Assembly (NCBI GenBank): GCA_033345195.1 | Contig: JAWPOE010000004.1 | Location: 182,569 to 246,568, forward strand | Reading direction: 5' to 3' | DNA length: 64,000 nt | Source of the DNA: Alphaproteobacteria bacterium | GTDB taxonomy: Bacteria > Pseudomonadota > Alphaproteobacteria > Rs-D84 | Shown: piece after piece, positions 31,769 through 38,298 of the stretch | How the letters are laid out: each line of letters begins with the position of its first letter | How positions within the stretch are numbered: position 1 is the first letter of the stretch | Position numbers and translations under genes: made by a program | Notes under the pieces: model-generated | What the model saw: the letters and a program-made list of their open reading frames with translations, nothing else | Databases searched by the model: none | Told to the model about the DNA's origin: nothing

Positions 31769-32239
31769 ATGTTTTTGCAAATATTTTTCATTTTTTTAAT
31801 TCTGACGGCAATTTGGCTATCTATCAAAATTTCTGTCGCAGATTTTAGGCGTCGCATAATACCAGACGCATATCTATTTCCGCTGATGCTGATTGGATTA
31901 GTTTTGATTTCTTTTTATCATTTTCCAACAAACATCACAGACGCGGTCATTGGCGCAACGGCCGGTTATCTGCTGGCAACCTGTGTCGGCTTTGCGTTTG
32001 ATTACTATATGCAAAAACATGGGGACAACATAACGCCCCCGATTGGGATGGGTGATATAAAACTGATTGGGGTTGGCGGATTGTGGCTGGGGGCGACTGG
32101 ATTGGCCTATGCATTAATTATCGCATGCATAACCGGCGCGATTTGGGCGCGCATACGCCACCAAAAATACATTCCATTTGCCCCATTCTTTTTACTTGGT
32201 GGATTTTTATCTTTGATTACAATCTACATTTTGTTATAA
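31769..32239 (+). CDS. A24-family prepilin peptidase (CpaA/TadV-like)
   Basis: 156-aa polytopic membrane protein with the catalytic Asp context (SVADFRRRIIPDAYLFP, GMGDIKLIGVGG) typical of Flp-type prepilin peptidases. Confidence 0.7.
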   Translation: MFLQIFFIFLILTAIWLSIKISVADFRRRIIPDAYLFPLMLIGLVLISFYHFPTNITDAVIGATAGYLLATCVGFAFDYYMQKHGDNITPPIGMGDIKLIGVGGLWLGATGLAYALIIACITGAIWARIRHQKYIPFAPFFLLGGFLSLITIYILL

Positions 32240-32263
32240 TACACACGTAGAGGGGAATAGAGA

Positions 32264-33139
32264 ATGAGAGTTAGCACATCCATATTCATCGCAGCAACCG
32301 TCCTGACGTTGACACACGCGCACGCAGGTGCCCCGGTTCCATTTTCACAATATGGCGTAATTCAAAACGTACAAAACTATTCAACGAACCCATATTGGGA
32401 CCCCAATGGCCCATATAATCAGCGCTTACCCCAACCGGTATATGTCCAAGGCGTACAAATCGAAACCGCCGAATGCCAACAGGTTGTCGCTGGTCTTGTT
32501 GCAACGCAATGTGCAATGCGTAACAACTGTCGCGACGCCAGACTCAGTGACATTCGCCCCGGCGTAATGTTGCAACTGTCACAAATCCCCAGTGGAAATT
32601 ACGCAACGGCATGCGTCGGTTATATTGACAGTGCGTTTGACAATTATGTTAAACAATATGGTTATGCAATGCCGACCGGGGTTGAACAGTTCCCAAACGC
32701 CATTGTTGACGAACCTGCGCCACAAATTGAAATTCAAAATCCATACAAGAAATCTGCCCCAGATTGGGCGACAGAAATGCAAGAACGCAAACAAGAATTA
32801 CTGGATTTACAGGCTCAAAATGGCGCAAATCAACTAGAATTAACCAAAACTGAATTTCCAACCGTATATGCTGATCTGTCATTCCAAGACCGCATGAATA
32901 ACCTGGCAACGGGTTACGAACCATACAAAGACAAATCCGCATACGTCCCGATTAAGGTTGAAGACAGGAAATTGTACCTGGCGCGCAAAAAAGAGATTGA
33001 ACAATTGGAACAACAACGCGCCTGTATAAACAAGAAAGCAGAATTTGATAAAATGGTTGTTGCGTTAAACGCAATTCACAGATGCCGCGCAAACAAAACA
33101 CCTATATCACAATGCAGCGGGATAGGGGATTATTTGTGA
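32264..33139 (+). CDS. Secreted hypothetical protein (291 aa)
   Basis: Signal peptide MRVSTSIFIAATVLTLTHAHA, nine Cys and a coiled-coil C-terminal third. Confidence 0.5.
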   Translation: MRVSTSIFIAATVLTLTHAHAGAPVPFSQYGVIQNVQNYSTNPYWDPNGPYNQRLPQPVYVQGVQIETAECQQVVAGLVATQCAMRNNCRDARLSDIRPGVMLQLSQIPSGNYATACVGYIDSAFDNYVKQYGYAMPTGVEQFPNAIVDEPAPQIEIQNPYKKSAPDWATEMQERKQELLDLQAQNGANQLELTKTEFPTVYADLSFQDRMNNLATGYEPYKDKSAYVPIKVEDRKLYLARKKEIEQLEQQRACINKKAEFDKMVVALNAIHRCRANKTPISQCSGIGDYL

Positions 33140-33498
33140 AAAAAACACACACCTTTTTTACTTTTGTCACGCTATGCACAGGCATAATTGGCTTTGCCGG
33201 GGCCAACACACCAGCCAACACACCAGGTCAAACAACAATACAAACCACTGTTTCCGTGCCATCAATGCTGGACATAAACGACGAATATACATATATTGTA
33301 CAAAAAATTAATGCCGAAATGGATGTAATTATGGCAGAATGTTCGGCATTGGGGCTAAAAAAACCAGAATTCTTGACAGGCAAACAAGATTCAAACACAG
33401 GACGACCATCTTCTGGCGGTGACGACAATTCATCGTCAGGCGACGCAACACCTGGAGATTCAACAAACAACGACGACGAAATTGTATTTCAATTATAG
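33136..33498 (+). CDS. Small secreted protein, paralogue of the N-terminal domain of the 34560..36071 product
   Basis: GTG 33136 overlaps the upstream stop. QTTIQTTVSVPSMLDINDEYTYIVQKINAEMDVIMAECSALGLKKPEFLTGKQ is about 85% identical to residues 30-85 of the 34560 protein. Confidence 0.5.
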   Translation: MKKTHTFFTFVTLCTGIIGFAGANTPANTPGQTTIQTTVSVPSMLDINDEYTYIVQKINAEMDVIMAECSALGLKKPEFLTGKQDSNTGRPSSGGDDNSSSGDATPGDSTNNDDEIVFQL

Positions 33499-36071: not shown

Positions 36072-37890
36072 TAAAATACTAATATTTTTTACAATTTGTT
36101 TATTTTCTGTATCTACGTTTGCAAATGCAGACGATTATGGTTTGCCAGACGCGACAAATACACAGGAACAAACAAAATCATTGGTTGGCGACGGCACAAC
36201 CCCGGACGGCTATGAAGATGCACTAACTGTTGACGAAATATTAATCACACCGCCTGCAAAAACCGAATGCGCGACCAAGGTATTTGCAGATGCCCTGGCA
36301 AAAAATGTTGGCAACATCAAAGAATCAGATCCAGAAACCGTAATTCAAGTATGGATTCAGCAAACATTTACTGATAAAAACACCTTGACCCAGGTGCTGG
36401 CATGTCCTGAAATTGCAGGTGCGGCGGATGACGAAACAATTAAATTTATACCAATTCAATATACATTTCCCGGCGGGCGCGAAATTATCGTAAATTATGA
36501 AACACAGCCAAAGGTTCTGAAACAACATCTAAAATTGGCAACAAAACGCGGTCTGCCATCCAGTGACCCAAATCCGCGCGTTGGCAGTATCGACGACACC
36601 GCCGTCTGGACAAATACAGACCCGGCATGGTATGCCATCATGGTGACCGAACACGGTGCACTGGACAATTTTGTTGGCCCAGATAAAAATAATACCATTT
36701 CCATCAATTATATCAAAGAACATATTGACGAACTGTATCCAAACGGCGCATTAAATGGCGGAAGCTGTACCAGTCGCAGTGCATTGGCCAGCGATACAGA
36801 TATGATAAACAGAACTGTCACAAAAACAGTCAATATGAAAGAAACAACCGGCGAAGATGACACAAACGATTACTATGTCGCTGGCGATATTAACCTGCAA
36901 TGGATTTCATACCTTGAAATGGCATTGGATGTTGTTATCACTGTTGTCACATTCGGTGGGGGCACCGTCATATCAGGCGTGGCCAAGGCGGCACGCGCAT
37001 CCAAGGCATTAAAGGGAATGAAAACATCCTTGAACACGTTAAAACAATCTGACAAAGTTGTCGATTTTATTAAAACGACCCAACGCATCGATAAATTAAA
37101 CAACGAAATAAAAATGCTGGACAAGGTTAATGACGCTACGAAAATCGCCGACAAGACCAAGGAATTAAACCAACTAAATAAGGCACGGGAACAGCTGGAT
37201 AAAGCAGACGATGTCAAAAAATACCAAGAAACCATGGAAACGTACAAAAAATTAAACGCATACCGTCGCAATTTGCGCATGCTGCGTCCGGCACAACGTG
37301 GCAATATTGTGGCACGTGCGGCACGCGTGGGCAAGGCAACAAAAGCCGCATGGACTGGGGGAAAACTGCTTAGAAAAGGGGCAAAATTAGGCAAAAGCGG
37401 CAAATTTTCTGGTCGCATTCGTGACTACTTGTTCCATTCGACAATGCGCAATGTCAGCCGTTTGGGTAAAATGTCTGCTGCGGGCGGCATATTATATTCC
37501 GCGTTAAAATTTGCAGGCGACATGTATGACTACACAGAAACCAGCACAGGCGAATTTACCAGTGGCGTTGATTTTGCACCACTATTACTGCTGTCTGCTG
37601 ATGATTTGCAGGGCCAAGAAAACGTGGTAAACTACGGAATGTGGTTGATGTGGGCGGGCGATTCTTTAAGTGCCGCAGACGATGATGCCGCATATTTACA
37701 GGCAATGGATTTCGCCGCAAAATTCCATGAAGATTTGACAGAAATGCAATCTGATACAAACAGTCCATGTAATGTTGACATATTCATTGTCCGCCCAATA
37801 CTACGTGATCCAGGTTCTGATAATGCAGCACTATATTATCTGGTCATGACTGACCAACCATGGACCACCGCAGACATTGAACAAAAATAG
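36061..37890 (+). CDS. Secreted protein with the same hydrophobic-basic-hydrophobic core architecture plus a coiled coil (609 aa)
   Basis: Signal peptide MMINKILIFFTICLFSVSTFA, then LDVVITVVTFGGGTVISGVAKAARASKALKGMK, a coiled coil and AARVGKATKAAWTGGKLLRKGAKLGKSGK. It overlaps the upstream stop. Confidence 0.5.
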   Translation: MMINKILIFFTICLFSVSTFANADDYGLPDATNTQEQTKSLVGDGTTPDGYEDALTVDEILITPPAKTECATKVFADALAKNVGNIKESDPETVIQVWIQQTFTDKNTLTQVLACPEIAGAADDETIKFIPIQYTFPGGREIIVNYETQPKVLKQHLKLATKRGLPSSDPNPRVGSIDDTAVWTNTDPAWYAIMVTEHGALDNFVGPDKNNTISINYIKEHIDELYPNGALNGGSCTSRSALASDTDMINRTVTKTVNMKETTGEDDTNDYYVAGDINLQWISYLEMALDVVITVVTFGGGTVISGVAKAARASKALKGMKTSLNTLKQSDKVVDFIKTTQRIDKLNNEIKMLDKVNDATKIADKTKELNQLNKAREQLDKADDVKKYQETMETYKKLNAYRRNLRMLRPAQRGNIVARAARVGKATKAAWTGGKLLRKGAKLGKSGKFSGRIRDYLFHSTMRNVSRLGKMSAAGGILYSALKFAGDMYDYTETSTGEFTSGVDFAPLLLLSADDLQGQENVVNYGMWLMWAGDSLSAADDDAAYLQAMDFAAKFHEDLTEMQSDTNSPCNVDIFIVRPILRDPGSDNAALYYLVMTDQPWTTADIEQK

Positions 37891-37980
37891 ATAATTTTTG
37901 CATACCTGGACAATAATTATTCCTGTTGTGTTTCTTATGATATTTATTTATAATCAATACATAAAAATAAGGAGGCAATA

Positions 37981-38298
37981 ATGAAAAAACTATTATCTGC
38001 ATTGCTTATTGTTATCTCAGCAATTTATACCGCCAACGCATATCAGGTTTTATCATCCAAAGAACTGGGCAAAAACGACGCCAAGAATCAAAATGTCGTT
38101 GTTAAATGCACAACTGATACCGGCAAATTATCAAATCAAACTTGTTCGCTGCGTCGATATGCAAAATGCACAGGTACGGGTGACAAAAAACGTTGTAACG
38201 GCTGGCAACCATGGCGTGACCTGCGCAATCCAGGCCAACAATATTCTGATTGGCGCTCTGCCGCATCTGCATGCTGTCGTTCCAAAGGATTAAGATAA
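37981..38298 (+). CDS. Small secreted basic Cys-rich protein (105 aa)
   Basis: Signal peptide MKKLLSALLIVISAIYTANA, then seven Cys in 85 aa (CTTDTGKLSNQTCSLRRYAKCTGTGDKKRCNGW..ACCRSKG). A terminator follows. Confidence 0.45.
   Translation: MKKLLSALLIVISAIYTANAYQVLSSKELGKNDAKNQNVVVKCTTDTGKLSNQTCSLRRYAKCTGTGDKKRCNGWQPWRDLRNPGQQYSDWRSAASACCRSKGLR

Follow-up and report, generated by a model that had tools for sequence, protein, structure and literature searches.

A peptidase-headed operon of tiny-genome gut Alphaproteobacteria looks like an undescribed cell-envelope complex with a variable cassette slot

In the Tad/Flp (type IVc) loci of Alphaproteobacteria, a short A24 peptidase (CpaA/TadV) without a methyltransferase domain heads an operon of exported and membrane proteins. 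The locus described here is headed likewise. It occupies positions 31769-38298 of a 64,000-nucleotide stretch of DNA (hereafter the window) from a Candidatus Enterousia (order Rs-D84) genome of less than 1 Mb, where ORF analysis found seven co-directional open reading frames (ORFs) on the + strand, namely an A24 (prepilin-type) peptidase gene followed by six genes denoted as G1 to G6. In contrast with the Tad/Flp loci, the window and the flanks contain neither a Flp pilin or pseudopilin motif nor CpaB-F/TadA-G, a secretin or an ATPase, the downstream proteins carry ordinary Sec signal peptides, and no NCBIfam model matched the peptidase. SlyB, Pcp and the Rickettsia 17-kDa antigen resemble the cluster proteins in their Gly/Ala-rich, marginally hydrophobic segments of hairpin length after a signal peptide, but the cluster proteins far exceed them in size and have conserved globular domains, to which G4 and G5 add basic loops of 80-165 residues. 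Pore-forming hairpin proteins such as the colicin pore domains, the VasX-type effectors of type VI secretion and the type III secretion translocator IpaB are also among the closest known, in that they carry hydrophobic helical hairpins. In the chlamydial Inc-type proteins, two hydrophobic lobes of about 20 residues are joined by a short loop and export is through type III secretion, whereas the loops of G4 and G5 measure about 80 and 165 residues and the signals are of the Sec type, so the likeness to bilobed vacuolar-membrane proteins drawn in the original prediction, an earlier reading of the same DNA, does not hold.

Envelope-spanning machines have dedicated peptidoglycan lytic enzymes such as VirB1, EtgA and FlgJ, and TtsA is a GH108 muramidase of type 10 secretion. 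In relatives of the present locus, a muramidase would similarly be tethered to a membrane complex by a docking module or by fusion, as an accessory and not an essential part, but no holin, spanin, secretin or ATPase was found, and the enzyme is absent from the window. Polymorphic or cassette loci for surface proteins and toxins also combine a conserved frame with one slot in which close relatives exchange families that are unrelated or highly divergent, with conserved 5' sequences as recombination points. The cassette proteins here, however, are not C-terminal toxin tips with immunity partners, and one of their families (type D, below) is a paralog of the frame protein G5. Apart from the A24 part and, in relatives, the GH108 parts, nothing in the cluster corresponds to a kind of system already described, and we regard it as new in kind. 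Its features are more those of an as yet undescribed complex of the cell envelope than of a group of secreted toxins.

The gene order is kept across relatives. By tblastn in 84 related loci, the constant order is a gene for a 742-residue protein (U742) and gcrA, both on the - strand, then the peptidase, G1, a slot, G5, a GH108 muramidase gene where present, and G6. The peptidase is always the first gene of the operon and was found in 77/77 loci with enough upstream sequence; G1 was found in 83/84 loci, G5 in all 84, G6 in 80/84 and a full-length GH108 in about 40%. Median identities to the window were 78% for G6, 73% for LpxB, 65% for GcrA, 61% for the peptidase and 58% for G5, and G5 and G6 diverge at about the housekeeping rate. 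Relatives of G5 are present in 253 species genomes. Labels and sources were read for the 80 best loci, which are labelled Candidatus Enterousia, Alphaproteobacteria, Rickettsiales, proteobacterium or bacterium, and the named sources are animal or human guts. The operon is a signature of the tiny-genome gut Alphaproteobacteria Ca. Enterousia/Rs-D84 and was found only there.

Between G1 and G5, the slot measures about 0.75-1.9 kb in all loci but one and is filled by one of at least five families. Type A, with a Gly-zipper-like hydrophobic region and a Cys-rich domain, occupies about 42 loci, and the G4-like type B about 14. Type C (11-15 loci) is G3-like and in some cases follows a small ORF with an N-module, like G2, as with the G2-like ORF in locus L006 and the N-module ORF in L017. 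Type D (about 10 loci) is the G5 paralog (28% identity over 420 residues, E 1e-30), and type E is represented by one example and one possible one (1-2 loci). The types are scattered mosaically over the G5 tree, and A, B and C all occur among relatives more than 75% identical in G5. Among the closest relatives, L086 (94% identity in G5) carries type C only, L003 (83%) type A, L085 (77%) type B and L006 (76%) the G2-like ORF with type C. With G5 and G6 conserved and the slot replaced wholesale, the pattern is suggestive of a constant machine of which one exchangeable part comes into contact with something variable.

No other locus seen combines a C cassette (G2 and G3) with a B cassette (G4) as the window does, and by blastn its G4 gene is a mosaic. 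Over its first 60-90 nt, where the signal peptide is encoded, the gene matches the 5' end of the L086 and L085 G5 genes (34560-34650 against L086:1352-1413 and L085:4206-4293, 87-94% identity), whereas the 5' end of the window's own G5 differs. Nucleotides 34632-34822 are 87% identical to G2, and the body of the gene shares 82% identity with the L085 type B gene. We read the copied 5' end as a trace of the recombination event by which the type B cassette came in. Since the breakpoints fall in the coding sequence of the G4 signal peptide and N-module, conserved 5' sequences are likely the recombination points for cassette exchange. The window thus appears to be a recombinant locus with two cassettes that has lost GH108. 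In relatives, the GH108 gene (about 1.1 kb) lies at a site corresponding to 37875-37911, of which 37 nt are left in the window; blastn of the window against L085 and L003 breaks at 37874/37912, and no catalytic domain was detected in the whole window by tblastn with GH108 proteins. An assembly artefact or pseudogenisation behind the unusual G2, G3 and G4 arrangement was rejected, as every ORF is intact and the independent assembly L088 is 100% identical over 31000-39000.

The stretch 31769-38298 is read as a single operon from its tight or overlapping junctions and from a likely terminator after G6. G1 and G2 overlap by 4 nt and G4 and G5 by 11 nt, while 2 nt separate G2 from G3, 9 nt G3 from G4 and 90 nt G5 from G6, the last preceded by a strong AAGGAGG ribosome-binding site. 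The terminator (38300-38326) consists of an A-run, a GC hairpin (ACGCCA-CTT-TGGCGT) and a T-run, and is likely bidirectional and shared with the convergent lpxB; it was read directly from the sequence, and the consensus scan did not list it. Upstream, the 71-bp spacer between gcrA and the peptidase gene (31698-31768, +) is the candidate operon promoter and ribosome-binding site, with a sigma-70-like TTCACA-17-TATAGT at 31698-31726 (10/12 matches, a consensus match only) and GGGGG read 5-9 nt upstream of the peptidase ATG. The spacer also holds one GANTC site (GATTC; CcrM methylation, GcrA-associated) at 31746-31750, about 20 nt upstream of the peptidase start. It was rejected as a meaningful promoter feature, as a stretch of about 70 bp holds one such site by chance in about one case in four.

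The first gene (31769-32239, +) encodes a protein of 156 residues with five hydrophobic helices and no methyltransferase domain. Its assignment as an A24 prepilin peptidase was borne out by a PF01478 match above the gathering score (E 3.9e-17, 63 bits against a cut-off of 26.5), and by inspection the motifs ADFRRRIIPD and GMGDIKL keep both Asp residues (D25 and D96). G1 (32264-33139, +; 291 residues) has a signal peptide, a conserved 4-Cys N-domain and a C-terminal M-module (residues ~188-252; 32825-33019), the last common to the N-terminus of the GH108 muramidases of relatives. G2 (33136-33498, +) encodes 120 residues from a GTG start, or 138 if the ATG at 33082 is used, as gene callers choose on the identical assembly L088; it comprises a signal peptide, a stand-alone 'NDEYT...C' helix module and a low-complexity tail. 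G3 (33501-34550, +; 349 residues), the type C cassette, has a signal peptide, a conserved globular domain and a continuous Gly/Ala-rich hydrophobic region of 74 residues (262-335; 34284-34505). G4 (34560-36071, +; 503 residues), the type B cassette, has a signal peptide followed by an N-module (residues 30-84; 34647-34811), a globular domain, hydrophobic segment 1 (residues ~232-258; 35253-35333), a Lys/Ala-rich loop (262-345; 35343-35594), a weak hydrophobic segment 2 and a Cys-containing C-domain. G5 (36061-37890, +) encodes the conserved scaffold, 609 residues from TTG or 608 from the ATG at 36064. Its signal peptide and N-domain are followed by a hydrophobic segment (residues 281-306; 36901-36978) with an invariant E286 and a near-invariant D290, a basic coiled-coil loop (307-470; 36979-37470), a weak hydrophobic segment (471-487) and a highly conserved C-domain. 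G6 (37981-38298, +; 105 residues) is a small 6-Cys protein with a signal peptide and is the most conserved cluster member. By inspection, the N-termini of G1 to G6 show the basic n-region, hydrophobic core and AxA-like site of Sec-type signals, and together with the ORF coordinates they agree with the original prediction of six downstream genes with Sec signal peptides and short or overlapping junctions.

A hydrophobic-basic-hydrophobic layout had been proposed for the three largest proteins, and it stands for G4 and G5. The loop of G4 contains 18 Lys/Arg against 1 Asp/Glu and that of G5 42 against 15, although the second hydrophobic segments of both are weak (Kyte-Doolittle mean below 1.4; undetected on a rough Hessa-type scale). 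For G3 the layout fails, as segment analysis gave the one continuous hydrophobic region and no basic stretch. In the G5 family alignment, segment 2 carries a mostly conserved Lys (Arg or Asn in a few sequences), and in that of G4 the C-domain carries invariant cysteines. Paralogous domains across the six proteins were likewise only partly upheld. As predicted, G2 duplicates the N-terminal module of G4 as a separate protein, with 56% identity over 114 residues to G4 residues 1-114 (E 1e-36), 48/55 identical residues in the core (87%) and about 90% identical DNA over about 165 nt. The signal peptides of G4 and G5 are similar (47% over 38 residues, E 4e-5). The other proteins show no detectable paralogy: G3 against G4 gave E 0.009, by BLAST only, hhalign was non-significant for G5/G4, G3/G4 and G3/G5, and a common origin of G3, G4 and G5 is unsupported. 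Resemblances between the motifs CSDH..AVN.AG..DNEFFLD and CTS..IN.AV..NDYYVA, plus a C-terminal VDIF.V..DP strand, were noted and are not claimed as homology.

The cluster was held to be undescribed, and the searches agree. G1 to G6 had no significant match in Pfam, NCBIfam, PADLOC or, at E <= 0.001, PHROGs. Sequence and profile searches of the PDB with G1, G3, G4, G5, G6 and the peptidase, in which G1, G4 and G5 were also searched as profiles, gave nothing significant. Homology to ordinary periplasmic proteins was not found in the family or PDB searches, and no description of the cluster was found in the literature searched. An AlphaFold2 (AF2) model of G4 has two regions with a predicted local distance difference test (pLDDT) score above 90, and it had no fold match in the PDB or BFVD. 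A profile of the G5 family retrieved only 141 clusters among 1.84 billion representatives, which are family members, paralogs or fragments, and ten distant or unusually long members contained no Pfam domain except GH108 in one fusion. The 203 homologs of G1 are all hypothetical proteins of Alphaproteobacteria metagenome-assembled genomes, one of which, locus tag R8M37_02440, is 100% identical to it; the exact G4 sequence is not on record in the assembly index, unlike that of G1 (P0222).

The GH108 proteins of relatives (PF05838, E 1e-14 to 3e-16; a weak PG_binding_3 match) suggest a tie between the cluster and peptidoglycan. The M-module of G1 matches the N-termini of short GH108 proteins with 33-39% identity (E 3e-8 and 4e-7), and a full G1-like region is fused to GH108 in L023, L024, L035, L049 and L077, besides a separate upstream G1. 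G1 is also fused to slot proteins, namely to a type C domain without the hydrophobic region (P0272, P0265), to a type B C-domain (P0336) and to type D (P0430, P0437). In P0373, G5 is fused straight to the GH108 catalytic part, and because neither a signal peptide nor an M-module lies between them, the fusion is not a frameshift artefact. By the Rosetta-stone argument, such natural fusions point to one assembly of the products in one compartment. Considering that GH108 acts on peptidoglycan, the N- and C-domains of G5 and of the slot proteins would lie on the periplasmic side, with which the invariant cysteines of the G4 C-domain, fitting an oxidising compartment, agree. By the positive-inside rule, basic loops stay cytoplasmic, and the charge of the G4 and G5 loops is most simply explained as that of the cytoplasmic loop of a membrane hairpin.

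Taken together, we tentatively favour a reading that we rate as falling a little short of probable, in which the operon encodes a lineage-specific, Sec-exported and membrane-anchored complex on the peptidoglycan side of the inner membrane, with an exchangeable subunit. G5 and the slot proteins of the G4 type and type D would insert as helical hairpins with both globular domains in the periplasm. The signal peptide would be cleaved, the N-domain exported and transfer stopped by the first hydrophobic segment; the basic or coiled-coil loop (80 to more than 300 residues) would remain in the cytoplasm, and the second segment would re-insert so that the C-domain is exported. In G5, E286 and D290 of segment 1 could pair with the mostly conserved Lys of segment 2 inside the hairpin. 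G1 may serve as an adaptor, as its M-module is the same as that tethering GH108 in relatives, through which the complex could recruit the muramidase as an accessory for local peptidoglycan cutting, and G6 may be a small disulfide-rich core subunit. The cassette gene or genes between G1 and G5 would be replaced by recombination, and their product would face something variable, possibly a partner cell, a phage or a host. The A24 peptidase would be co-transcribed with the cluster.

Several observations weigh against this complex. The link between peptidase and cluster is synteny only, and no outer-membrane component or ATPase was found at the locus. GH108 is absent from the window and from more than half of the loci, so that the system can do without peptidoglycan cleavage. 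The hydrophobic segments, rich in Gly and Ala, are of marginal hydrophobicity, with a rough Hessa-type sum of about +2.7 kcal/mol for segment 1 of G4 and still weaker values for segment 2 of both G4 and G5. AF2 gives no confident helices for them, which leaves room for full translocation followed by insertion into a membrane or an oligomer elsewhere. Slot types A and C lack basic loops and, with the marginal segments and the missing AF2 helices, make room for a SlyB-like or toxin-like insertion elsewhere.

The original prediction leaned toward secreted effectors or toxins, with the hydrophobic and basic stretches of G3, G4 and G5 inserting in a foreign membrane, that of a partner bacterium or host, to form pores or leaks. 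Such leaks would feed a bacterium without transporters, and the cassette would vary because the targets vary. The marginal, Gly/Ala-rich segments could indeed pass the Sec machinery, a type A relative matches Gly-zipper_YMGG below the threshold (E 0.0099; 16 bits, with the cut-off at 28.9), recombination exchanges a hypervariable slot as it does at polymorphic toxin loci, and the muramidase could breach the wall of the partner. Standard transporters are missing from Rs-D84 bacteria, which are believed to draw metabolites from other cells (PMC12306168). However, G5 and G6 evolve in a housekeeping-like manner and keep the same chromosomal site in all related loci. Neither the window nor the flanks showed a secretion system or an immunity-like gene, and PADLOC and PHROGs gave no match. 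The G1-slot fusions that lack any hydrophobic segment in some species show that the hairpin can be dispensed with and is not an indispensable warhead, the GH108 fusions point to the producer's own peptidoglycan layer, signal peptides alone carry proteins only to the periplasm of a diderm cell, and the basic loop is better accounted for as cytoplasmic under the positive-inside rule. Neither sequence nor fold similarity to a known pore-forming domain was found for the cluster proteins. A family of secreted pore-forming effectors or toxins is thus not supported by conservation, context or fusions, and we consider it unlikely.

Still less likely is that the cluster encodes glycine-zipper envelope proteins like SlyB and Pcp, that is, fully exported hairpins in the periplasmic leaflet, probably of the outer membrane, that stabilise the envelope, with the peptidase as an unrelated neighbour serving a pilus encoded elsewhere. 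The hydrophobic regions that follow the signal peptides in G3 and the type A proteins are rich in (G/A/S)xxx(G/A/S), the sub-threshold match in the type A relative is to a Gly-zipper model, and AF2 does not model the regions as transmembrane helices. On inspection, though, the N-termini end in AxA-type sites with no lipobox (L-x-x-C) in the proper position, and none of G3, G4 and G5 had a Pfam Gly-zipper match. In G4 and G5, the long and strongly basic loops differ from those of SlyB; large conserved flanking domains, cassette switching and muramidase fusions are foreign to that family, and the strict peptidase synteny argues against chance adjacency. Similarly doubtful is an apparatus for contacting or tapping other cells, in which the cassette would be partner-specific and membrane-inserting, the muramidase would open the wall and the peptidase would mature a hairpin protein internally. 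If this were true, internal cleavage of a hairpin protein would be a new substrate class for prepilin peptidases.

What the peptidase cuts bears on a further, improbable alternative, a pilus- or secretion-like apparatus in which it would cleave on the cytoplasmic side before an N-in segment 2 of G4, G5 or type D proteins and free a pilin-like C-terminal fragment, thereby acting on prepilin-peptidase substrates of a novel, internal kind. The absence of a canonical Flp pilin claimed earlier was upheld. A regular-expression and hydrophobicity scan found no Flp- or type IV pilin-like ORF among ORFs of at least 30 residues in the 64-kb window, and the same scan of about 88 related loci (ORFs of at least 40 residues) gave one spurious match only. 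With no canonical pilin nearby, the suggestion that the peptidase may process something else also stands. Its invariable place as first gene in 77/77 loci, its two retained Asp motifs and the lack of a classical substrate nearby all suit such an apparatus, as does a hairpin segment 2 that would be N-in after a basic stretch, as in a prepilin; type IV pili are reported in PMC12306168 only for another lineage, UBA9783. Against it, segment 2 is poorly hydrophobic, and neither a conserved Gly at -1 nor an acidic residue at +5 was found at the loop/segment-2 junction in the G4 or G5 family alignments, so prepilin-like cleavage before the second hydrophobic segment was rejected for lack of a conserved motif. 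Likewise, no TadA/CpaF assembly ATPase, TadB/C platform protein or RcpA/CpaC secretin was found in the window ORFs scanned or in the +/-10 kb flanks of relatives. Least likely of all, and very improbable, is a domesticated phage lysis or type 10 secretion-like module, in which the membrane proteins would be holin- or spanin-like partners of a GH108 endolysin for cargo release or wall remodelling: the GH108 with its weak PG_binding_3 match in about 40% of loci, the hairpins and coiled coils of the membrane proteins and the G5-GH108 fusion fit it, but no cluster protein matched a PHROG, no BFVD fold matched, no relative of G5 or G4 was found in 2.9 million viral contigs, proteins of 349-609 residues with signal peptides are unlike holins and spanins, GH108 is dispensable and absent from the window, and the locus is fixed in a housekeeping neighbourhood without mobile-element genes.

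The remaining genes of the window are housekeeping ones, including those for DnaE, SecA, RuvB, a TolR/ExbD-family protein, tRNA synthetases, LpxA/B, a release factor and transketolase, and no mobile-element gene or phage signal was found at the locus by PHROGs, viral-contig scans or inspection of this neighbourhood. Next to gcrA lies the U742 ORF (28839-31067, -), for which the precomputed Pfam field is empty in L088 and homologs and NCBIfam gave weak coiled-coil matches only. A coiled coil lies at the N-terminus and a Cys-rich part at the C-terminus of its product, which also has one strong transmembrane helix and a long acidic region rich in Pro, Val and Glu; the ORF adjoins gcrA in 75/84 related loci (36-81% identity) and may or may not belong with the cluster. 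The GcrA homolog (31083-31697, -) contains an insert rich in Ala and Lys for which NCBIfam gave matches to histone H1-like (Hc2) models (E 2e-5); GcrA of relatives matches Pfam HC2, and the composition of the insert is like that of the Lys/Ala-rich loops of G4-type proteins. Downstream of lpxA, a 344-residue polytopic membrane protein without a Pfam match (40338-41372, -) is syntenic in relatives (328 residues in L003 and L088). In one relative, whose genome is of the same size class, a Cas9 (HNH, RuvC_III, Cas9_RuvC; 973 residues) lies about 9 kb downstream of the cluster (L001/L002 20670-21671), a CRISPR system kept despite genome reduction.

Elsewhere in the window, a protein of 1167 residues (12516-16019, -) matches only one Pfam family, the Listeria-Bacteroides repeat (PF09479, E 1.7e-15), and is likely to be a large protein of the cell surface. 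An ExbD/TolR-family protein (17024-17539, -; PF02472, E 2.6e-25) stands between ORFs 16208-17017, without a Pfam match, and 17433-17924, and the stretch 16208-17924 (-) may encode a Tol-like or Ton-like motor. Further ORFs of 227-808 residues lack a Pfam family at E <= 1e-5, at 911-2131 (-), 2141-4567 (-), 62286-63938 (-), 53699-54793 (+) and 46848-48314 (+). In a genome so rich in lineage-specific proteins, any single orphan cluster is less unusual.

The operon poses the question of what a prepilin-type peptidase does where no pilin or pilus genes adjoin. Apart from A24 and GH108, it consists of proteins without relatives outside the clade, and G4 has a confidently predicted region for which the structure libraries searched gave no match. 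Should the complex and its topology prove true, they would give a handle on an uncultured group through heterologous expression, as well as a structural target, and the cassette type could serve as a strain-typing marker in metagenomes. The Rs-D84 lineage, including Enterousia, comprises widespread gut bacteria with genomes of less than 1 Mb, without flagella or respiration and with most biosynthesis lost; they have no standard sugar, amino-acid or peptide transporters, are probably partner-dependent and are thought to live off other cells (PMC12306168). An operon of 5-6.5 kb at the same place in every sampled species of such reduced genomes is a strong candidate for a lineage-defining function in the envelope or in partner interaction.

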